Counted from the first letter of the stretch, positions 4,920-32,000 are shown. The stretch is 32,000 bases of DNA from Candidatus Electrothrix sp. GW3-4 (GCF_037902255.1 NZ_CP147990.1:3720001-3752000), one strand, 5' to 3'. Translations and numbers: made by a program. The notes: a model not told the origin generated them from the sequence alone.

Positions 4920-7759
4920 AATGCCTCCTCCTGTTCAATCCGCGCAGGGGGTAAGGGTGCAAAATAGCCGATGATCATCAGCAGAACACCGACGGCTAAA
5001 AAGGAAACAATTCGCTCCACAGTACCGCTGTTCGCCAGATCAACCAGGAAGAGTTTGGCCACCGTGCTAGCGACCAGCACTACCCCAATTAACCACAAGA
5101 CCCGGTGTTTCAAACGATGCGCTGTCACCATCAAAATCAGAGAAAGGACTCCCCAGAGAATAGCAAGTGCGGCCTGATAAAGCTGGGAGTCCAGCATGGG
5201 TGCAAAATCAAAGCGGACACCAGCCAAGTGATGTACTGAGCGTGCCAAAAGGGTGTTCAGCCAGATGAAGAGCGTGCCTCCTCCGAGAGCAATAAAAAGA
5301 GAAGATGGAATTACCTCCGTCAGAAACTTTTGGTGATGCAGCAGCCAACCCGCCATCAAAATCAAGACAATAAGTTGGCTCAGTTCAAGAGGATTGACAA
5401 GAGGGATGAACGGCAGGGGTGGGGCATTACCGGAAACAAGAAGAGACCCGGTCAACAACCAAAGCCAGGAAAAAAAGAGAAGGCATCCTGAGCCCTGTTC
5501 ATCGTACTGCGCACCATATTCAGAAAAAGGCCATCGCCTGGAAGGTTGACAGCCTTGGACTAAGCGCACTATCCCCATGGGGATAAGGCCCCAAAGGAGA
5601 AAGGGCCAACAGCTGGTGCGGCCTGCCGTTCCCATCCTGCTCGCAAAATCATAAACGTGCCAAACTGTCTCAGCACTCATGAGCAACGTTAACAGAAGAT
5701 AGCTGCCGACATGGATGCAGGAGAGAAAACCCTGATACAGCCACTCACGTCCTTTGTACAGACAGTAATAAAGGAGAAAAAAAGACAGCGGCCAAGCCAA
5801 CCAGCCAAGATGAGAAAAAAAATGCCTGCCAGATATAATGCCGTAGAACAAACTGTACCAATCTATTCCTTCCGTACTGACTAACAACATTACCGGCAGC
5901 AATCCCAAACTCGGCCAGGCCGCTATGGGCCAGGAAATCCGCCGCGCCAGCGTGATCATGGCCGCACAACTCAACCCAACAAAGAGCAGCACTGCATAAT
6001 TTTGGTAGATATAGTAGGGAACGAGTTGGTAATTCAACTCATTGATCCCACCGCCGAACCACCAGATGACACCCCAGACAAAGAGGAGAAGATGGTGAAA
6101 GCCTTCAAACTCGCTCAGATTCTCCGCCCGATAGAGATACCAGGAGGAAAACAGGGCAGAGAGACTGATGATCAGGCAACCTAGATAGACCCCGTTGAAC
6201 AGGATTATCCGCTCATCAGCAGGATGGGTGCCAGCCAGGAAGAAGAAGGCCGCGACCAGCTGGAGCAGGGCCCCGAAATTCCTGGGGAGTATCCGATTCT
6301 GACGCACACCCAGCCAAATCAAGGCTGCCCCCTCCAGGGCCCATGTCACCGCTGTCCATCTGCCGCTCAGGGCCAGGGGCACTGCCAGGGTGACAAAGAC
6401 GATCCCCAGGGCGAGAAAGGCCTCGGTCAGGGTACGCATGCCCTGGCGCAGCCGTTCATTGCCCCTATTCCAGAGGAACCGTGCCAATCCGACATAAAAA
6501 AGGCTGGTCAACAGGGCGCTGATCGCCAGCCCGTATTTGATGTCTTTGACCAGGGCCGTCTGGAGGGAAAAACAGATAATTGGGGTACCGAAGACCAAGG
6601 TGCCATCCACGTAGCCCCGCAGCTTGGGAGGTTGACGGAAGGCGAACAGGACCCCGATCAAGGTGAACATCAGGAAAAAGAGGATAAGGAAGGGTTCTGT
6701 GCTGGCAAAATAGCGGGGCTCATAATTCCTCACCCCCCATGCACTACCAATCCCCAGGGTAAAGAAAAAGCCGAGCAGGTTGAGGACCCGCCAGGCCTTG
6801 AACCAGGCAATGATCAGGATACCGGCATTGAGCAGGGCATAATAACTGAACAGAGCCACGTGGTTGCCGCTATCGGTAGAGAGCAGGACCGGGGCCAAAA
6901 AGCCGCCAATCGCCCCAAACAGGGCCAGGGGTTTGGCATCCTGAAGCAGGGCCAGGGCCGCAGAGGTACAGACCAGCCCCACCATAATGGCAAAGGCCAG
7001 ACCCTCCGGCAATAAGGCATAGAGCTTAAAGGCGGCAAAGACATCAAGAAAAAGCAGGCCAATGCCGCCGCCCTGCATCAACAGGGCGAAACCTGCTCTC
7101 TTGAGCCGCAGCTTCCAGCCAAAGAGCAGCATGGCGATCCCGGTCAGAGCTACGCCAAGCAGGCGCAACTCTATGGGCAACATTTCGCGTTCCGCAGCAT
7201 ATTTGAGAAGAAAGGCAACCCCAAAGAAAAGGACCAGCAGCCCCACCCGCAGCACCACATTGCCCTGGGTGAAAAAGCTCCAAAGGGAGACAAGCATCCG
7301 CTCAAGCGGGTCGGCAATAGGTGCTGTCGGCGGCGTTGAAGGAAAAACAAAGGTGGGAGGATGTACCGATTTATCCAGGATAGCCCCAGGCATTTCTGCC
7401 CTGCTCTGCCCCCCCGGTGTTTCCTCGGCTTTTACTGGACGGGTCTCCGCAGGAACGGATGTTTTCTCCAGGGGCGTTGCTTCCGCTGGCTGACGAATAG
7501 GGCTTTGTTTTTTTTCTGCCCTTGCTGGAGATTCGGCAGCAGCAACAGGTTGCGTTAACGTTTTTTCACGATATCGGAGAAGGGTCTCAAGCTCCTTGAG
7601 CCGCTTTTCAAGCCGACCTAATGCACCCTTCTGGATAAAGTTTCTCGCCAGCAGAAAACCGAGTACCATGCCGACAAACAACCCTTTAACATCATCGAAG
7701 ATCCCGGCGAACAGGATACCGCCCGCAATGGTGCTGATAATCGTTTTGATCCTGCCCAC
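4916..7759 (-). CDS. DUF2339-like large polytopic membrane protein
   Basis: 947-aa ORF. Starts with a short N-terminal TM, then a coiled-coil segment (LGRLEKRLKELETLLRYRE) and a Pro/Ala/Glu-rich linker. More than 20 predicted hydrophobic helices follow to the C-terminus. Architecture is typical of PF10101-type proteins as I remember them. Confidence 0.85.
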   Translation of the reverse strand: MGRIKTIISTIAGGILFAGIFDDVKGLFVGMVLGFLLARNFIQKGALGRLEKRLKELETLLRYREKTLTQPVAAAESPARAEKKQSPIRQPAEATPLEKTSVPAETRPVKAEETPGGQSRAEMPGAILDKSVHPPTFVFPSTPPTAPIADPLERMLVSLWSFFTQGNVVLRVGLLVLFFGVAFLLKYAAEREMLPIELRLLGVALTGIAMLLFGWKLRLKRAGFALLMQGGGIGLLFLDVFAAFKLYALLPEGLAFAIMVGLVCTSAALALLQDAKPLALFGAIGGFLAPVLLSTDSGNHVALFSYYALLNAGILIIAWFKAWRVLNLLGFFFTLGIGSAWGVRNYEPRYFASTEPFLILFFLMFTLIGVLFAFRQPPKLRGYVDGTLVFGTPIICFSLQTALVKDIKYGLAISALLTSLFYVGLARFLWNRGNERLRQGMRTLTEAFLALGIVFVTLAVPLALSGRWTAVTWALEGAALIWLGVRQNRILPRNFGALLQLVAAFFFLAGTHPADERIILFNGVYLGCLIISLSALFSSWYLYRAENLSEFEGFHHLLLFVWGVIWWFGGGINELNYQLVPYYIYQNYAVLLFVGLSCAAMITLARRISWPIAAWPSLGLLPVMLLVSTEGIDWYSLFYGIISGRHFFSHLGWLAWPLSFFLLYYCLYKGREWLYQGFLSCIHVGSYLLLTLLMSAETVWHVYDFASRMGTAGRTSCWPFLLWGLIPMGIVRLVQGCQPSRRWPFSEYGAQYDEQGSGCLLFFSWLWLLTGSLLVSGNAPPLPFIPLVNPLELSQLIVLILMAGWLLHHQKFLTEVIPSSLFIALGGGTLFIWLNTLLARSVHHLAGVRFDFAPMLDSQLYQAALAILWGVLSLILMVTAHRLKHRVLWLIGVVLVASTVAKLFLVDLANSGTVERIVSFLAVGVLLMIIGYFAPLPPARIEQEEAL

Positions 7760-20574: not shown

Positions 20575-20600
20575 TCGGGCATCAACCCAAGGGCGACCTT

Positions 20601-20628
20601 GTAGGGGCACGGCGCGCCGTGCCCCTAC
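20601..20628. repeat. REP-like perfect 28-bp GC-rich palindrome GTAGGGGCACGGCG/CGCCGTGCCCCTAC between argF and argG
   Basis: Exact 14+14 reverse-complement arms read directly. A close copy lies at 26285-26312. The motif GGGCGACC immediately upstream (20591-20598) matches the arm of the variant at 4864-4871. Confidence 0.85.
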
Positions 20629-20672
20629 AGTATCTCCCGATTCTCCTTTCTACAAAACAATAAACAAACATC

Positions 20673-21902: not shown

Positions 21903-23591
21903 ATGAAAATTCCTTACGGGTTAAGCAATTTCAAAGATGTTATTGAGGAGGGGTATCTTTATATCGACAAAACCTCCTATATAAATACATTAGAAGAGCA
22001 GGGAAAATTCAATATCCTGCTCCGCCCGCGCCGTTTCGGAAAAAGTCTGTTCCTTTCCACCCTCCTGTATTACTACGATACCAACGAAAAGGGTCATTTC
22101 GAGACCCTTTTTTCCAACCTGCACATCGGCGACAACCCGACACCGCTGAAAAACAGCTATCAGGTTCTGTTTATGGAATTCAGCGGCATCGCCGATACCG
22201 ACGCAAAGGCGGTTGAGCAGGAATTCCGTATTGAAGTACAAAAACGGCTGTGCGATTTTCTGCGCCGCTACGGATACCCTGCGGAGAGCCTGCAGCAGGT
22301 GAAAGCGGCTCCTTCAGCAGCCTCGGCCATGAAGATATTTTTTTACTGGACAGTAGATGCAAATATCTACCTCATGATCGACGAGTATGATCATTTTGCC
22401 AATTCCATCTTGGGGACCAGTCTGGAACGCTTTCGGGAAATCGTCGGCAGGGGCGGTTTCATGCGCAGCTTTTATGAAACAGTCAAGACCGCAACTATGG
22501 AAGGTATTGTTGATCGTTTTTTCATCACCGGGGTTACCTCCATTACGCTGGACAGTATGACCAGCGGGTTCAACATCGGCGAGAACATTACCCATCACCG
22601 CCTGTTCAATCAGGTGCTCGGCTTTACCGAAGAGGAGACCGAAAACATTGTCGAGCCGCTGGCGCGGAACTGCGCTCTTGATCGAATTGCGCTTATGAAC
22701 GACCTAAAAAGATGGTATAACGGGTATCTGTTTTCCGATGAACGGACTGAGCGGGTGTACAATGCGGACATGGTGCTGTACTTTGCGAAGAATTTCAATA
22801 GGGAAACCTGCGCCTATCCCAAAGCGATGCTGGACGACAACATCGCTTCGGACTACAAGAAAATCATGCAGCTGTTCGGGATCGGTGATCGGGCGGCGAA
22901 TTTTACAACGCTGGAAAAGCTGCTCACCAACGGAGAGATTATCGGCCTCCATAGCAGAAAGCTTTCTGCGGACAAAAATTTCGAGCAGAATGATTTCATC
23001 GCCCTGTTGTTGTATATGGGTTTTGTGACCATTACCGGTACCTTGCTGAATCGGTTACGTTACGGTATTCCAAACTATGTTATCCAAAAACTCTATTATG
23101 ATTATTTCAGAGAGGAAATCGAACAGCGGGCCAAAATCAGCATTTCAAAAGACGCTATAGAAAATGCTGTGGCCGAACTTGCTCTGCACAACAACATCAA
23201 GCCGCTGACCGAAGAAATCGGCAGAGTCCTCGCTCTGTTCTCCAACCGTGATTTCATGAACATGGATGAAAAGCACATCAAGGCTGTGATTCTGACTCTG
23301 TTATATCAATCTGAGGTGTACTTCATCCGTAGTGAGGCTGAGGTGAACAATCGCTACCCGGATATTCTTCTGCTGGAACGCAGCCCCGTTGAAGTGCCCA
23401 ATCAATTTCTCCTTGAGCTGAAGTTCAGTAAGAAAAAGGATGGGGAGCAGGGATGGCAACGGAAAAAAGAAGAAGGGATCAGGCAGGTGCAAAGATATCT
23501 GGAGCTGGAGGATGTGAGTGCTTTGCCCAAGCTCATGGCTTACTTGCTTGTCACCGACGGAACTAAAATTGAGGCGGTTGCAGTGAGCTGA
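21903..23591 (+). CDS. AAA-ATPase-like domain protein with C-terminal PD-(D/E)XK nuclease-like domain (PF09820 + PDDEXK_9/DUF1703 architecture)
   Basis: 562 aa. The N-terminus MKIPYGLSNFKDVIEEGYLYIDKTSYINTLEE...ILLRPRRFGKSLFLSTLLYYYD is the hallmark of the predicted AAA-ATPase family. The C-terminal part YPDILLLER...FLLELKF fits a PD-(D/E)XK-type D...E-x-K core. Confidence 0.85.
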   Translation: MKIPYGLSNFKDVIEEGYLYIDKTSYINTLEEQGKFNILLRPRRFGKSLFLSTLLYYYDTNEKGHFETLFSNLHIGDNPTPLKNSYQVLFMEFSGIADTDAKAVEQEFRIEVQKRLCDFLRRYGYPAESLQQVKAAPSAASAMKIFFYWTVDANIYLMIDEYDHFANSILGTSLERFREIVGRGGFMRSFYETVKTATMEGIVDRFFITGVTSITLDSMTSGFNIGENITHHRLFNQVLGFTEEETENIVEPLARNCALDRIALMNDLKRWYNGYLFSDERTERVYNADMVLYFAKNFNRETCAYPKAMLDDNIASDYKKIMQLFGIGDRAANFTTLEKLLTNGEIIGLHSRKLSADKNFEQNDFIALLLYMGFVTITGTLLNRLRYGIPNYVIQKLYYDYFREEIEQRAKISISKDAIENAVAELALHNNIKPLTEEIGRVLALFSNRDFMNMDEKHIKAVILTLLYQSEVYFIRSEAEVNNRYPDILLLERSPVEVPNQFLLELKFSKKKDGEQGWQRKKEEGIRQVQRYLELEDVSALPKLMAYLLVTDGTKIEAVAVS

Positions 23592-25085: not shown

Positions 25086-26155
25086 TGAAAACAGATATTA
25101 TGAAGCGAAGTTCTCTTGTCTGCGGCTTGCTGAGCGGTCTGCTGCTGAGCGGTCTGAGCGGCTGCGGCTACAAAAATGATCCGGTGGCACCGCAGGCCCT
25201 GGTTCCTGTCCCTATTAATGACCTACGCTATGAGCTGACCGATAAGGGCGCTGTCCTGCATTGGAACTATCCCACCGAGACTGTGGGCGGTGAGGACCTG
25301 AAAGAAATTGATTCCTTCATGCTCTACCGGGCCGAGGTCCCTACTGCTTCCTCCTGCGAGACCTGCCCTGTTCCTTTTGGCAGTCCGATCAAGGTGAATG
25401 GAGGAGTTATTCCTGAGCGTGAGGGAAAAAGGGCGGCCAGTTACGACATTGGTTTCCTGCGACCGGGCCATAAGTATTTCTTTAAGGTACTGAGCCGGAC
25501 CGGCTGGTTAACCCCGTCTGCTGATTCTAACCAGGTCAGTTTTACCTGGGAGACACCGCCAGCAGTTCCGCAGGATCTGATGGCTGAGGTTGGTGACAGC
25601 ATGGTTGCTCTCCAGTGGCAGCCGGTCGCTGCCTATCGTGACGGCAGCAAGGTCGAGAATGAAGAGATTATATACCAGGTCTCCCGCCGCGAAGGCAAGG
25701 GCTCTTTCCAAAATATAGGTAAGTTGCTGACCGAGCCAGAATTTATGGATAGCGAAGTCACCGGAGGCCATGAATACACCTACCGTGTCCAGGCCCTGAG
25801 TGCCTATGATGGTGATATGGTTGCCGGTGAGTTCAGCAAACCCGTTGACGTTGAAATAGTGGATCTGATTGCTCCGGCAACCCCGGAAAACGTCACCACT
25901 GTCCGCATAGCCAGTACGGTCAAGATTTTTTGGGATCAGGGTGCAGAGGCAGACATAGCCGGATATCGGGTATACCGCCGCTTGGGCAATGAAGACGACC
26001 CCACCATGATCGGCGAAGTTAAGGTGCCCTATAATATCTATGAGGATACCGAGGCTCCAGATGAAAATATGTATGTCTATTACTCGGTGAGCAGCTTTGA
26101 CAAGAGTGATCCAGCCAATGAGAGCGAACGCTCTGCTGAGGTAGAGGCTGAGTAA
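25085..26155 (+). CDS. Lipoprotein with about three fibronectin type III-like domains (LptM/LppL-like lipobox N-terminus)
   Basis: 356 aa. The start ATG overlaps the argH TAA by 1 nt. Lipobox LSG/CGYKNDP. Repeated about 90-aa modules with W...Y.V.A / Y.Y.V signatures typical of FN3. Confidence 0.8.
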   Translation: MKTDIMKRSSLVCGLLSGLLLSGLSGCGYKNDPVAPQALVPVPINDLRYELTDKGAVLHWNYPTETVGGEDLKEIDSFMLYRAEVPTASSCETCPVPFGSPIKVNGGVIPEREGKRAASYDIGFLRPGHKYFFKVLSRTGWLTPSADSNQVSFTWETPPAVPQDLMAEVGDSMVALQWQPVAAYRDGSKVENEEIIYQVSRREGKGSFQNIGKLLTEPEFMDSEVTGGHEYTYRVQALSAYDGDMVAGEFSKPVDVEIVDLIAPATPENVTTVRIASTVKIFWDQGAEADIAGYRVYRRLGNEDDPTMIGEVKVPYNIYEDTEAPDENMYVYYSVSSFDKSDPANESERSAEVEAE

Positions 26156-26198
26156 CGCTAACAGCTCAGATTTCTGCCGCAAACACATATGTTTTTCC

Positions 26199-26242
26199 AG
26201 CCGGTTATTGATCACGTAAGAGAGGATCGGTAGCCGGCTTTT
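26199..26242 (+). terminator. Candidate terminator after the FN3 lipoprotein gene
   Basis: Imperfect 15-nt arms AGCCGGTTATTGATC / GATCGGTAGCCGGCT with an 11-nt loop, followed by TTTT. Confidence 0.4.
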
Positions 26243-26284
26243 CCTTAGAACTGCCCGAAAAGAAATCCCTTTGTACAGAACTCT

Positions 26285-26312
26285 GTAAGGGCACGGCGTG
26301 CCGTGCCCCTAC
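26285..26312. repeat. REP-like GC-rich palindrome copy GTAAGGGCACGGCGTGCCGTGCCCCTAC upstream of lysA
   Basis: Near-identical to 20601-20628 (2 substitutions by eye). The stem GGGCACGG/CCGTGCCC is retained. Confidence 0.8.
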
Positions 26313-26376
26313 GGGATACGGGTTTCGCGGGACGGTCACAACACAAACATCTCATCAATAGAAAACAACAGCCACC

Positions 26377-27639
26377 ATGAATCATTTCACCTATAAAAAC
26401 GGCATACTCTGCTGCGAGGACAAACCTGTGCAGGATATCGCCAAGGAAATCGGCACCCCCTTCTATCTCTATAGCACTGCCACCCTGCAGCGTCATTTTG
26501 ATGCCTTTGATTCCGGGTTTGCCGGAATGAAACATCAGACCTGTTTTGCGGTCAAGGCCTGCTCCAATCTTTCCATCCTCAATATCTTTGCCAAGATGGG
26601 CGGGGGGGCTGATATCGTCTCCGGTGGCGAGCTGTTCCGGGCCCTGAAGGCTGGAATTGATCCGCAGAAAATCATCTACTCTGGGGTGGGCAAGACCCGA
26701 ACAGAGATACGTGATGCTCTGGAGGCAGGTATCCTGATGTTCAATGTGGAATCTCCCCAGGAGCTGGATCGTATCCAGGAGGTCGCAGCGGAGATGGATA
26801 TCACCGCCCGGATCGCCTTTCGCATCAACCCGGATGTGGACCCCAAGACCCACGCCTATATCTCCACGGGTCTGGCAAAAAATAAATTCGGTATTCCCGT
26901 GGACGAGGCCTTGGCAGAATATCTGCGGGCCAAGGAAATGGAAAACATCGAGATCGTCGGCGTCAGCTGCCATATTGGTTCCCAGCTCACCCAGATTGCG
27001 CCCTTTATCGAGGCCCTGCGCAAGGTAAAAAACTTTGTTGCTCGACTTGATCAGGAAGGAATCCATATTCAGTACCTGGATCTGGGTGGCGGCGTTGGTA
27101 TCACCTATGATGATGAACAGCCTCCCCATCCTGTGGACTATGCCGCAGCAATCAAGGCGGAACTGGAGGATATGAACCACACCCTGATCCTGGAGCCGGG
27201 TCGGGTCATCACCGGGAATGCCGGGGTATTGATTACCGAAGTTCAATACACCAAGGTCAACAGCGGTGGAGAAAAGGAAAAACGCTTTATCATTGTCGAT
27301 GCCGCCATGAACGATCTTCCCCGCCCTTCCCTGTACAGCGCCTATCACGAAATCCTGCCGGTGCAGGAGCCTGGTGAGGACGCACAAAAGCATGAGGTTG
27401 ATGTAGTCGGCCCCATCTGCGAGACCGGTGATTTCATGGCCAAAGACCGAATGATGCCGGAGGTGCAGCCGGGGGAATTACTGGCTGTTATGAGCTGCGG
27501 GGCCTACGGTTTTTCCATGTCCTCCACCTATAATTCCCGCCCCAAGGTGGCTGAAGTTTTGGTTGATGGCGACCAGTTTCGGGTCATCCGAGAACGGGAG
27601 AGCTATGAGGATCTGATAAGGGGTGAAGATTTGCCATAA
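26377..27639 (+). CDS. lysA: Diaminopimelate decarboxylase
   Basis: 420 aa. PLP-binding FAVKAC motif, DLGGGVGI and EPGR motifs, CETGD, and full-length resemblance to LysA. Confidence 0.95.
   Translation: MNHFTYKNGILCCEDKPVQDIAKEIGTPFYLYSTATLQRHFDAFDSGFAGMKHQTCFAVKACSNLSILNIFAKMGGGADIVSGGELFRALKAGIDPQKIIYSGVGKTRTEIRDALEAGILMFNVESPQELDRIQEVAAEMDITARIAFRINPDVDPKTHAYISTGLAKNKFGIPVDEALAEYLRAKEMENIEIVGVSCHIGSQLTQIAPFIEALRKVKNFVARLDQEGIHIQYLDLGGGVGITYDDEQPPHPVDYAAAIKAELEDMNHTLILEPGRVITGNAGVLITEVQYTKVNSGGEKEKRFIIVDAAMNDLPRPSLYSAYHEILPVQEPGEDAQKHEVDVVGPICETGDFMAKDRMMPEVQPGELLAVMSCGAYGFSMSSTYNSRPKVAEVLVDGDQFRVIRERESYEDLIRGEDLP
27523..27633 (+). repeat. Direct repeat, left copy (3' end of intact lysA)
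   Basis: Aligns without gaps to 28801-28911 with about 10 substitutions in 111 nt (my count), mostly at third codon positions. Confidence 0.9.
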
Positions 27640-28800
27640 GCCGGGCTGGATTGCCGAATCAACAGGTCAAGACAGTGAAAAAGAACAACACCAAAGAGCC
27701 CCAAAAGGCTAGCCGATCCGATGCATCGTTCCTCACCTCTGTCGGGAAAAATATGCTCCCGAATGATTATGCTTCCGTACTGAAAGAACTCAAGGAGCGT
27801 ATTCGATCTGAACGCCTGCGCGTCACCTTGGCAGCTAATTCGGCCTTGATTCTTCTCTACTGGGATATAGGAAAAATCATTGTAGAGCGACAGCAGCAGC
27901 AAGGCTGGGGTGCCAAAATCATTGATCGTATTTCCTTTGACCTCAAGCACAGCTTTCCAGAAATGAGCGGATTTTCGCCGCGTAACCTCAAGTACATGCG
28001 GAAATTTGCCGAAGCTTGGCCGGATCAAACAATTGTGCAACGCACCGTTGCACAAATTCCTTGGCGGAGTAACTTGGCTCTGCTTGAAAAGCTGGATGAC
28101 GTGGATACACGCCTGTGGTATGCCCAAAAAACCGTGGAAAACGGCTGGAGTCGAAACATTCTGGTCATGCAGATCGAAAGCCGTTTGCATGAGCGTCAAG
28201 GGCAGACTGTAAACAACTTTGCTGCCACCCTTCCGCCGCCTGATTCCGACATGGCGACCCAAATCTTTAAAGATCCTTATCTGTTTGACTTTCTCGGCAC
28301 CGCCGACCTTAGAAAGGAACGCGAAGTCGAACAAGCATTAATGGATCATGTGCAGGAGTTTCTCCTGGAAATGGGGGCCGGATTCTCCTTTGTCGGTCGT
28401 CAGATGCTGCTGGAGGTCGGAGATCAGGATTTTCGTCTTGATCTGCTTTTTTACCACCTCAAGCTGCGCTGTTTTGTTGTGGTGGAATTAAAGGCTGTAC
28501 CTTTTGATCCCGGCTTTACCGGCCAACTGAATCTCTACCTGTCCGCAGTTGATGATCTGATGCGGCATCCAGATGATAAGCCGACGATAGGTCTCCTGTT
28601 GTGCAAGAGTAAAAACGAACTGGTGGTAGAATATGCTCTGCGCGGCCTCAACAAACCTATGGGTGTGGCGCAATGGGAAACGCAGCTGACTGAAACCCTG
28701 CCTGATAATTTGAAAGACAGTCTGCCGAGTATTGAGGAAATTGAGGCGGAACTAAAAGGTGAAGTGTAGGGGAAAGCTGTTAATTAAATAGGAAAAACCT
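27634..28800. mobile_element. Candidate minimal insertion cassette (about 1.17 kb, single yhcG-like gene) bounded by the lysA 3'-end duplication
   Basis: Unique DNA between the two direct repeats holds one gene and no integrase, transposase or terminal inverted repeats that I can see. Mobility is inferred from the flanking duplication only. Confidence 0.5.
27651..28769 (+). CDS. YhcG-like PD-(D/E)XK nuclease (DUF1016 family)
   Basis: The N-terminal helical region ...LKELKERIRSERLRVTLAANSALILLYWDIGKII...GWGAKIIDRISFDLKHSFPEMSGFSPRNLKYMRKFAEAWPD is typical of DUF1016. The C-terminal nuclease core is DLLFYH...VVVELK. The start is uncertain: TTG 27651, GTG 27675 or ATG 27753. Confidence 0.85.
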   Translation: MPNQQVKTVKKNNTKEPQKASRSDASFLTSVGKNMLPNDYASVLKELKERIRSERLRVTLAANSALILLYWDIGKIIVERQQQQGWGAKIIDRISFDLKHSFPEMSGFSPRNLKYMRKFAEAWPDQTIVQRTVAQIPWRSNLALLEKLDDVDTRLWYAQKTVENGWSRNILVMQIESRLHERQGQTVNNFAATLPPPDSDMATQIFKDPYLFDFLGTADLRKEREVEQALMDHVQEFLLEMGAGFSFVGRQMLLEVGDQDFRLDLLFYHLKLRCFVVVELKAVPFDPGFTGQLNLYLSAVDDLMRHPDDKPTIGLLLCKSKNELVVEYALRGLNKPMGVAQWETQLTETLPDNLKDSLPSIEEIEAELKGEV

Positions 28801-28926
28801 TCCACCTATAACTCCCGACCCAAGGTAGCTGAGGTTTTGGTTGATGGCGACCAGTTCCGGGTCATCCGGGAACGGGAGAGCTATGAGGATCTGGTGCGGG
28901 GGGAAGATTTGAGTACCTTGCCCTGA
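28801..28926 (+). pseudogene. lysA: Orphan duplicate of the lysA 3' end (last about 41 codons plus its own stop)
   Basis: Translates in frame as [41 protein letters not shown]. The intact lysA ends ...[38 protein letters not shown]. No start codon and no upstream lysA sequence. Confidence 0.85.
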
Positions 28927-29197
28927 GCAGGGAAACGGTTACCTGCATCAGAAATTATGTCGAAATGAATCAAACCGCCCTGAATCCCCCGCTGGCTCCA
29001 GGCCATTCCTCTGCTATCTCCGCCATTCACCTTGCCCCTCCTTCCCGCATCAGGTAATATCCATCTGATGGAAATGTTTGGTGGCCTGCTGATCAGCTCT
29101 GCCATCGGGTTCGGCTCTATTCAGCAATAGCATAAGGAGCGATATCATCGAACAAACACGCTATCAAAAGGAACAACCTGTCCCGTTTTATGAAAAA

Positions 29198-29980
29198 ATG
29201 GGCGCAGGTCCCAATACCCTCCTCCTACTGCACGGGTTTGGCACCAACCGGAAGAGCTGGTATGATGTCGCCCCGACCTTGGCCAAGTCATCAACAGTCT
29301 ACCTCTTTGATCTTATCGGAACAGGTAACTCCCCGGCCCCTGCTGACTGGCCTTATACGATGGAGGCACAGACAGAGATGATGTATGTCTTTATCAGGGA
29401 CAACGACTTGGCGAATATCGTCCTGATAGGGCATTCCTATGGCGGTGGGGTCTGTTTGCTGCTTTTGCAAAAATTGCTTGAGAATGGCTATGATGAGCTT
29501 GTGAAAAAACTTATCTTGATCGCTCCTGCTGCGTATCCTCAACCCTTACCTTTTTACATCGCTCTCCCCCGCATCCCATTGATCGGGAGGACGATCTTGC
29601 AATTCCTCAGCGCTGAATTGCAACTAAAAATAGCATTCAATATCGTATTGAAGAACCGCAAGGTCATTACAAAAGAACGCATAAAACGATATAGCGACAA
29701 TATTCGCCAACCGAGGTATCGAAAGGCCCTGATCAAAACGGCGCTGAACGTTCTTCCCCAGGGAATAGAACGTGTTATTGAAAAGATAGAAAAGATACGC
29801 CTGAGCACCCTGCTGATATACGGGAAAAATGATTCTGTTATCTTGCGAAAAAACCTGGAAAGATTATCATCCAGACTCCCCAACATCGTAACCAAAAAAA
29901 TTATGTACTGCGGTCATGTTCCGCATGAGGAACATCCGCAACTTGTCGCCGATATGATATCAGCATTTTTATGCGAGTAA
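29198..29980 (+). CDS. Alpha/beta-fold hydrolase
   Basis: 260 aa from the first ATG. Oxyanion-hole region LLLLHGFG, nucleophile elbow GHSYGG and C-terminal catalytic His (CGHVPHEEHP). The true start may lie upstream (see findings). Confidence 0.85.
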   Translation: MGAGPNTLLLLHGFGTNRKSWYDVAPTLAKSSTVYLFDLIGTGNSPAPADWPYTMEAQTEMMYVFIRDNDLANIVLIGHSYGGGVCLLLLQKLLENGYDELVKKLILIAPAAYPQPLPFYIALPRIPLIGRTILQFLSAELQLKIAFNIVLKNRKVITKERIKRYSDNIRQPRYRKALIKTALNVLPQGIERVIEKIEKIRLSTLLIYGKNDSVILRKNLERLSSRLPNIVTKKIMYCGHVPHEEHPQLVADMISAFLCE

Positions 29981-31424: not shown

Positions 31425-32000
31425 ATGAGTATACATGATCTTGCAGGGAAACCGGCCCCGAAATCCATCCTCGTCAATGTCCCGGAGTTAATCTCCGCCT
31501 ATTTCACCCTCAGCCCTGATTGCCAGGAGGCCACCGAGCGCATCAGCTTCGGCACCTCAGGCCATCGCGGCAGCTCCCTGAAGCGGAGCTTCAACCAGGC
31601 CCATATCCTGGCCGTGACCCAGGCGGTCTGTGAGTATCGGCAGGAGGCCGGGATCGACGGCATCCTCTTCATGGGCATGGATACCCATCCCCTGTCCTGG
31701 CCTGCCCAGCTCACCGCCCTGCAGGTGCTGGCTGCCAACAAGGTCCAGGTCCGCATTGCGGCCGGACCAGGAGGAGAGGGCCTGGGCTACACCCCGACCC
31801 CGGTGATCTCCCATGCCATCCTGACCCATAACAGCAAGGACAACGACAAGACCTGCGACGGCATCGTCATCACCCCGTCCCATAACCCGCCTGAGGACGG
31901 GGGCTTCAAGTACAATCCCCCCCACGGCGGCCCGGCTGATACGGACGTGACCCAGGTCATTGAGGCCCGGGCCAATCAGATCCTTGCGGAAAACCTTGCT
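31425..32000 (+). CDS. pgm: Phosphoglucomutase, alpha-D-glucose-phosphate specific (5' partial, runs off the window)
   Basis: Open frame from the ATG at 31425 to the window end; absent from the ORF track because there is no stop. It translates as [27 protein letters not shown]...[10 protein letters not shown]...[28 protein letters not shown]. This is collinear with E. coli Pgm, including the active-site TPSHNP loop. Confidence 0.9.

Follow-up and report, generated by a model that had tools for sequence, protein, structure and literature searches.

In the genome of the cable bacterium Candidatus Electrothrix sp. GW3-4 (GCF_037902255.1), within the 32,000-nucleotide (nt) stretch NZ_CP147990.1:3720001-3752000 that was analysed here and is called the window, a yhcG gene of the DUF1016 family lies inside the 3' end of lysA, bracketed by two copies of the last 111 homologous nt of that gene. 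The insertion is not confined to this genome, as the same architecture is common to several Electrothrix lineages, among which it has been reshuffled by recombination. We favour, at a probability of about 0.55, the joint explanation that a cassette made of a single open reading frame (ORF) for a predicted nuclease entered lysA by an insertion of the long-target-duplication type, that the target copies preserve lysA and can serve as homology arms enabling spread and loss of the cassette, and that repeated recombination with lysA alleles of other lineages accounts for the synonymous divergence between the two copies.

These copies, hereafter U (upstream) and D (downstream), align without gaps and are identical at 101 of 111 positions (blastn E = 7.6e-42; a repeat-family search agrees), just as the original prediction had it with a gapless pair, about ten differences and roughly 91% identity. 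Of the differences, which it placed nearly all at third positions, eight fall on the third base of a codon and two on the first, the latter being AGG/CGG, which is synonymous, and ATA/GTG, which exchanges Ile and Val. Nine of the ten are synonymous, leaving that exchange as the single change in the peptide, and the estimates amount to about 8.5 synonymous and 1.5 nonsynonymous changes, or proportions of synonymous (pS) and nonsynonymous (pN) differences of 0.32 and 0.018. The left boundary of the homology is abrupt, with no match upstream of 27523 and 28801. The first 11 nt (TCCACCTATAA) are the same in U and D, as are other stretches of 23-24 nt within the repeat. While U ends in ...GEDLP and a stop at 27639, D continues to ...GEDLSTLP and its own stop at 28926.

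The gene order argH-fn3-lysA is syntenic in relatives, and U diverges from these relatives like the rest of lysA (pS 0.58-0.71). A metagenome scan with LysA yielded 80 loci (loci are cited by L numbers throughout), and a search for empty sites, as the original prediction had suggested, found two. In L085 (88% amino-acid identity) lysA ends in ...GEDLSALP and a stop, neither yhcG nor a second copy follows, and the lysA end with the first downstream bases aligns with 28801-28934 of the window; this end can be aligned with U as well. L086 is empty too, its lysA ending in ...SELG and a stop, directly followed by a homolog of window 31439-31990. Since both empty sites have a single lysA end with a native tail, D and the adjoining STLP-stop are the displaced native end. 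The cassette was inserted behind ...GAAGATTTG (EDL), at a distance of five codons from the native lysA stop; the claim that the insertion sits exactly at the stop codon thus had to be given up, and it is the left end of the cassette that supplies tail and stop.

Filled sites were found in L082, L084, L166 and Ca. E. laxa (L002), all with the left junction ...GATTTG/CATGAGCCGGGCTGA and the tail HEPG-stop. In the window, a 1-nt indel at this junction creates an earlier TAA, so that the tail reads LP instead of LHEPG. The order lysA-yhcG-lysA' is not an assembly artefact, since it recurs in the independent assemblies L082 and L166. Moreover, filled and empty sites are both present among equally close relatives: the lysA most closely related to that of the filled E. 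laxa is found in the empty L085 (89-95% identity), and lysA is mosaic among these genomes. In L168-L170, a lysA with native tail and terminator is followed by a more distant yhcG (82% nucleotide identity) and then by a 28-nt repeat remnant.

An in-frame TAG (28789-28791) precedes D, for which no start codon was found in the window; mini-ORFs with ribosome-binding site and start are confined to the hsdM-type loci described below. Read-through or fusion of yhcG into D was considered and rejected, as the frames differ in the window and stops intervene; they are in frame in L082 only.

Table 1. Features of the lysA-yhcG region, in window coordinates
Feature	Position	Strand	Basis
Working lysA (diaminopimelate decarboxylase), 420 aa, ending ...GEDLP-stop	26377..27639	+	ORF; Pfam Orn_Arg_deC_N and Orn_DAP_Arg_deC
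U, upstream repeat copy, last 37 homologous codons of working lysA	27523..27633	+	Alignment
Substitute tail Pro-stop for lysA, from left junction and cassette end	27634..27639	+	Junction alignment
yhcG cassette proper, ancestral start codon (ATGA in relatives, ATAA here) to yhcG stop, 1134 nt	27636..28769	+	Homology limits at second site
yhcG ORF, 364 aa from GTG at 27675 (alternative TTG at 27651), PD-(D/E)XK family	27675..28769	+	Pfam; PADLOC
AT-rich spacer, 31 nt, yhcG stop to D	28770..28800	+	Common to the lysA-site cassettes L082, L166 and L081; absent in L001
D, downstream repeat copy, displaced native lysA 3' end, 5'-truncated	28801..28911	+	Alignment; matches the single lysA end of L085
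Native last lysA codons and stop, STLP-stop	28912..28926	+	Empty-site relatives end ...SALP-stop (L085), ...SELG-stop (L086)

The yhcG cassette and its exchange between genomes

The 1167 nt between U and D hold one ORF only, with the Pfam domains DUF1016_N (1e-43, 149 bits) and YhcG_C (7e-64, 215 bits) scoring far above cut-offs of about 33 bits, in agreement with the expectation that this interval carries nothing but a YhcG-like gene. YhcG has been described as an uncharacterised PD-(D/E)XK protein, kin of the Holliday-junction-resolvase-like nucleases (PMC1189080). Its E..D..ExK motif is conserved among 21 homologs, with E240, E279 and K281 invariant and D264 present in at least 90%. PADLOC matches the gene to the candidate defence gene PDC-S02 (E = 2e-151), from which we infer a candidate role in phage defence, and the family is large (25,731 clusters at 50% identity, with E-values up to 0.001). 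Likewise as predicted, nothing resembling a mobility function is visible: ORF and Pfam domain searches found no integrase or transposase in the insert and no tyrosine or serine recombinase within about 5 kilobases (kb) on either side, and a repeat search found no inverted repeats at the insert ends. Beyond the repeats, the insert has lysA as its neighbour on one side and genes for an alpha/beta hydrolase and an adenylate cyclase on the other. The GC content of the cassette (0.47-0.51) is below that of lysA (about 0.54). Between lysA and yhcG neither promoter nor terminator was found, the site counts equalling those of shuffled controls, and the cassette is probably read from the lysA transcript. 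No Rfam family matches within 26100-29400, and the fold of 28927-29100 is unremarkable (z = -0.5).

L001, L081 (Electrothrix sp. Rat3) and L083 carry the same gene at a second site, behind an ORF of 232 aa, and this site gives the limits of the unit. The stretch homologous to the window starts there at ATGAGCCGGGCTGA (27636) and in L001 ends at the yhcG stop (28769); the unit is therefore a bare ORF, from its ancestral start codon to its stop. The cassette meets D at one common position in the window, L082, L166 and L081. In L081 the left flank of the second site is joined to the spacer, D and native tail of the lysA site, as if two cassette copies had recombined.

The cassette is 4-8 times younger, by synonymous divergence (dS), than the lysA gene that it adjoins. 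While the lysA body gives a dS of 0.88-0.98 between the window and L082, L002 or L084, the yhcG body differs from the window by a dS of just 0.11 (L082), 0.25 (L002), 0.19 (L081) or 0.20 (L001). The block of high identity spans about 27720-28765, the cassettes of the window and L082 being 96-97% identical, and both the non-coding termini and the variable N-terminal region diverge near the neutral expectation for a cassette of this young age. In the hsdM loci, pairwise identities and distances of yhcG and hsdM are incongruent. Among bacterial and archaeal phyla, the amino-acid identity of relatives reaches 62-80%. Homologs occur on 477 plasmid records, 178 of them conjugative; phage vehicles were looked for as well, and just 2 viral contigs carry yhcG relatives. 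As judged from such sequence comparisons, the cassette is moved or exchanged horizontally among Electrothrix genomes.

Two further observations concern yhcG itself. In a patch at 27990-28080 the window and L082 are 98-100% alike and show 20-30% differences from L002, L081 and L001, with flanks that are 92-100% identical, a pattern suggesting recombination among cassette variants. In Ca. E. laxa (L002 6985-10507, OW818652), yhcG is cut after residue 328 by an insertion with an ion-channel/pentapeptide-repeat gene, and a separate 51-nt yhcG fragment lies about 3.5 kb further downstream.

Direct repeats around related yhcG genes

Is the bracketing of yhcG by a duplicated gene end peculiar to lysA? 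A scan with a YhcG alignment, restricted to one genome per species, gave 80 loci that span many bacterial phyla as well as the Methanosarcinales and encode proteins 62-94% identical to that of the window. Direct repeats within 300 nt bracket 15 of the 75 testable yhcG genes, compared with 4 of 328 control ORFs of similar size from the same loci (odds ratio 20, p = 7e-9). The survey for flanking duplications that the original prediction had proposed thus revealed a recurrent arrangement, in which the 3' end of the upstream gene is duplicated. At the bracketed loci the repeats are 67-93% identical over 38-131 nt, 12 of the 15 inserts have lengths of 1105-1183 nt, and there is no room for a second gene except another copy of yhcG. 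A protein-level search for more diverged flanking duplicates added no loci to those of the nucleotide search.

Outside the window, nearly all repeats are hsdM 3' ends, encoding either ...IKKNFEELGI-stop or ...NLKELGYGG-stop, with a third type in L012. An hsdM-like gene end stands in front of yhcG in about 35 of the 80 relatives, and for a sample of loci the neighbours were verified as HsdM on the upstream and HsdS on the downstream side. The window yhcG, situated between lysA and the hydrolase gene, is outside any type I restriction-modification (R-M) operon. At the hsdM loci, the yhcG start is the ATG of the overlap between hsdM stop and hsdS start in the upstream copy, and the downstream copy regenerates an ATG for hsdS. 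Furthermore, a ribosome-binding site and a start are often present at the right end of the cassette, from which a mini-ORF extends across the downstream copy. We also considered whether the repeats of about 59 nt at other yhcG loci could be ends of transfer RNA (tRNA) genes; ARAGORN detected no tRNA there, and these repeats are hsdM ends.

The order repeat-cassette-repeat-cassette-repeat is found in L028 (4559-7182, Rokubacteria MGBT01000085), where a copy of the hsdM 3' end stands before each of two cassettes and the middle one forms a mini-ORF (MKRITPKLAAAIAANLRELGYGG-stop). The first 120 nt or so of these cassettes are 88% alike and the remainder about 74% or less, and two variants this different point to two separate insertions at one site. 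In L041, a Planctomycetota assembly, the 3' end of a carbamoyltransferase gene may be a further target: at least 440 nt of it, on the opposite strand, are repeated at 97% around yhcG (1-2537), a case limited by the contig start. An hsdM-end relic still precedes yhcG in this locus, and the differences between the repeats cluster at their cassette-proximal ends.

Several single loci deserve mention in their own right. A repeat of at least 121 nt (97-98% identity) brackets yhcG in L031 (1-2074), another Planctomycetota assembly, and reaches the contig start. L067 has a 95-nt repeat (5886-5980 and 7233-7326) that comprises the hsdM end and the first 45 nt or so of yhcG, and its downstream copy may be the remnant of a second cassette. 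In L167 (1650-5151), a 599-aa double YhcG fusion (DUF1016_N-YhcG_C twice) is encoded directly upstream of a large serine recombinase gene.

Origin of the two lysA ends

The 111 bp of lysA to the left of the insertion point recur to the right of the cassette; U completes the working lysA, and the left junction and the cassette end provide a short new tail and stop. Under the long-target-duplication explanation, the unit would spread as DNA with a copy of the same short, conserved target segment on either side. Such copies would act as portable homology arms, with homologous recombination or double-strand-break repair placing the cassette, and the predicted nuclease may make the initiating break. 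Any genome with that gene end could receive the cassette, and the gene would not be inactivated. Conversely, recombination between U and D could remove the cassette precisely, joining ...GAAGATTTG directly to AGTACCTTGCCCTGA behind an intact lysA. At the hsdM/hsdS junction, the hsdS start codon is taken over by the cassette and restored by the downstream copy. Repeated exchange with lysA alleles of other lineages would explain why the differences between U and D are near-exclusively synonymous.

All comparisons among U, D and native ends give a pS of 0.27-0.75 and a pN of 0-0.10, and each copy therefore has the look of a lysA end that was functional in some lineage until recently. The D peptide of the window is exactly that of the working lysA end of E. 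laxa, from which it differs by 15 synonymous and no nonsynonymous changes. If D were decaying neutrally, at most one nonsynonymous change in ten would have P = 0.0013. These values sustain the earlier suggestion that both copies were functional lysA ends in different lineages, and they make plain duplication followed by neutral decay of a non-coding copy unlikely for the window. The idea of D as a neutral passenger travelling with the cassette was also rejected, as the D-D differences are overwhelmingly synonymous (pS 0.63, pN 0.03-0.09). In the window, U and D are separated by 10 differences and by at least 15 from any other lysA end. The U and D of L082 and L166 are not each other's closest matches, D corresponding to the working lysA end of L084 and alleles of its type. 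A recombination junction is visible within U, where the right 71 nt of L166 and L002 are 98.6% identical and the left 40 nt, with the preceding lysA, 82-86%. Some decay is seen in the cassette-proximal part of D, namely a Tyr to Cys change (L082, L081), a frameshift (L166) and a 9-nt deletion (L081).

We must however take into account several observations that weigh against this explanation. A plain target duplication predicts copies that are identical at first and then decay at all codon positions; nine of ten synonymous differences were found instead, so that later recombination, or an origin from two different alleles, has to be added. Neither copy travels with the cassette, since between the window and L082 the U-U and D-D comparisons give a pS of about 0.65 and the cassette a dS of 0.11. 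Simple co-transfer through homology arms, which predicts that the cassette-adjacent halves of the repeats travel along, is therefore rejected for this pair: each half has 11 differences in 54 and is as diverged as lysA. No bracketing repeat was detected at about 80% of the yhcG loci surveyed, and plasmid pMC64A carries a seamless hsdM-ATGA-yhcG-ATGA-hsdS arrangement with no repeat at all. No excised or circular form was seen. Most of the comparison sequences are metagenome assemblies, and YhcG is without a solved structure, an AlphaFold2 model made with 21 close homologs being poor (predicted local distance difference test, pLDDT, 47).

So how else could lysA ends of different descent have come to bracket one gene? 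In a Campbell-type (ends-in) integration, a circle carrying yhcG and a foreign lysA 3' fragment would enter by one crossover, leaving two hybrid copies, and excision would regenerate the circle. We hold this to be improbable, even though it would account for copies that differ like functional alleles of different lineages, for the identity of their first 11 nt beside a sharp left boundary, for the hybrid U of L166 and L002, and for the stronger decay of the cassette-proximal D in L082, L166 and L081; the tandem of L028 is likewise what repeated integration would be expected to produce. The cassette-adjacent repeat halves should, however, have travelled along, which is contradicted by their 11 differences in 54 beside a cassette that is 96-97% identical. 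Moreover, no circle junction was seen, and the first acquisition of lysA, in place of hsdM, as a new target could not be explained by a circle. Of the Campbell or homing-like event that the original prediction had proposed, the recombination junction inside the repeat (L166/L002) thus speaks in favour, and the failure of either copy to travel consistently with the cassette speaks against.

A passive history has as little to recommend it in our estimation: yhcG would have entered once in an Electrothrix ancestor and been inherited vertically, with gene conversion or recombination among yhcG copies keeping its divergence low and with empty sites arising as secondary losses through the repeats. 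The shared position of the cassette/D junction in the window, L082, L166 and L081 is what a single origin predicts, and the mosaic patch in yhcG, the recombinant appearance of L081 and the mosaicism of lysA itself would all fit. An old, non-coding D should on the other hand be saturated at all codon positions, which does not agree with a D-D pS of 0.63 at a pN of 0.03-0.09. The cassette termini and the variable N-terminal region, furthermore, diverge about as neutral sequence of the cassette's young age would, and the same cassette is present at a second site.

A one-off illegitimate event appears decidedly improbable. In one form, donor DNA with lysA-yhcG would have been anchored by homology at its left end and joined by microhomology inside the resident lysA at its right end, which would be homology-facilitated illegitimate recombination; in the other, a tandem duplication would later have been interrupted by recombination, an alternative discussed in the literature for ribosomal RNA genes (PMC3457768). 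Such an event would explain a donor-type U, a resident-type D and a single fixed right junction together. It would nonetheless require a prior insertion of yhcG beside lysA in the donor, and it leaves unexplained why bracketed yhcG genes are met repeatedly, with two or more sequence classes of hsdM end, perhaps also with a carbamoyltransferase gene, and as a tandem. Finally, an integrase-type island in the lysA 3' end from which all but yhcG was deleted is very improbable: although a substitute end with a displaced native fragment is its classical signature and relatives differ in the sequence that follows lysA, the insert and its vicinity lack an integrase, a single ORF makes up the insert exactly from start codon to stop, 12 of the 15 bracketed inserts keep to 1105-1183 nt with no room for a second gene other than another yhcG, and the insert supplies an end of only 2-4 codons while the 111-nt copy is resident-like.

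Returning to the long-target-duplication explanation, we put forward very tentatively, and with more doubt than confidence, that YhcG/DUF1016 genes as a whole are a very large class of autonomous, recombinase-free mobile cassettes in bacteria and archaea. If this were true, a bare ORF would invade a conserved gene at its extreme 3' end, or else the hsdM/hsdS overlap, would use the expression signals of the host and regenerate them by duplicating its target, and would carry the target copies as built-in homology arms for nuclease-triggered homing and scarless excision.

As for the surroundings, the segment 28927-31438, with the hydrolase and cyclase genes, is missing in L086 and Ca. E. laxa and present in L168/L169; where it is missing, other content precedes the homolog of window 31425-31990, which makes the region behind lysA a variable spot. 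Within it, about 110 nt at 28955-29065 recur at about 80% identity in L081 (8054-8162), L083 and L002 (10321-10387) beside different genes, with no Rfam match and no unusual fold. A 30-nt palindrome after argF (20600-20630) is also found upstream of lysA, in both orientations, in L002 (4637-4667) and L166 (184-213). Between argG and argH in the arginine operon, a gene of the AAA-ATPase_like and PDDEXK_9 nuclease families (21903-23591, plus strand) is shared with Ca. E. laxa (88% nucleotide identity) and absent from the more distant L090 and L091, which have argG and argH side by side; no repeat flanking the gene was found.

Comparison with known systems

Phage 21 and e14 integrate in the 3' end of icd and bring a substitute gene end, as elements of 20-40 kb with an integrase and a defined core. 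The window resembles them in that the working gene ends in joined sequence, a native 3' fragment lies beyond the insert and the two ends differ mainly synonymously; unlike them, the insert is one predicted nuclease ORF without an integrase and supplies only 2-4 codons. In classical homing, a gene is copied between contiguous flanks without target duplication, and PD-(D/E)XK is among the homing folds; to our knowledge, YhcG is not a recognised homing family. A lone predicted nuclease gene, present or absent at one site and diverging far less than the host gene, is reminiscent of free-standing homing endonuclease genes, yet yhcG is flanked by a 111-nt duplication rather than by contiguous flanks. 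Integron cassettes depend on an attC site and the IntI integrase. They share with the yhcG cassette a promoterless single ORF that uses upstream signals, and a tandem stacking in which each is followed by a repeat (L028), whereas no attC-like structured repeat, Rfam match or integrase accompanies yhcG and the repeat is the target gene's own end. Transposons and insertion sequences differ from it by their terminal inverted repeats, their transposase and a short target duplication of fixed length; the duplication at lysA measures 111 nt, and those at other yhcG loci range over 38-131 nt.

PrrC is embedded in the EcoprrI locus, and as with such accessory genes of R-M systems, most relatives of the window yhcG lie between hsdM and hsdS; the window copy itself is unlike them in being outside an R-M operon. 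DUF1016, RhuM and GIY-YIG genes are known between the core hsd genes of type I R-M operons (PMC9881135). We found no description in the literature of flanking duplications or of an insertion route for DUF1016/YhcG. The present case suggests how accessory genes could enter type I restriction operons without breaking translational coupling, and it links an abundant candidate defence family (DUF1016, PADLOC PDC-S02) to a specific mode of movement. For annotation it means that short gene-end "pseudogene" fragments beside DUF1016 genes are insertion footprints, not noise.

The closest likeness is to insertion with long target duplication, known from type I-IV restriction genes including the solitary mcrA (Nobusato et al. 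2000, Gene 259:99; Furuta, Abe and Kobayashi 2010, PMC2853133). Insertions of this class have repeats of more than 30 bp and variable length that often span a stop or start, no mobility genes, and empty sites in relatives, and their mechanism is unexplained, with a double-strand break suspected (PMC2853133). The 111-nt repeat, the single copy at empty sites and the lack of a mobility gene correspond to this description, as do repeats that spare the gene. By its domain and motif the cargo is a predicted nuclease that may be of restriction type, for which solitary mcrA would be a precedent. There are differences as well. The cargo is an uncharacterised DUF1016/YhcG protein and not an annotated R-M system, the family strongly prefers the hsdM/hsdS junction, and the cassette is ORF-exact and borrows the start codon of its target. 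Furthermore, the repeat copies in the cases from H. pylori share 94-99% identity and resemble each other more than they do the empty-site sequence (PMC2853133), whereas those of the window are 91% identical with almost only synonymous differences. One 1.1-kb ORF with a defined target, of which filled and empty alleles occur in nature, offers a minimal system for testing this 25-year-old question of mechanism, and hundreds of parallel cases at the hsdM/hsdS junction can be added to it. In its architecture, yhcG at lysA is a new example, in a cable bacterium, of this already described class.

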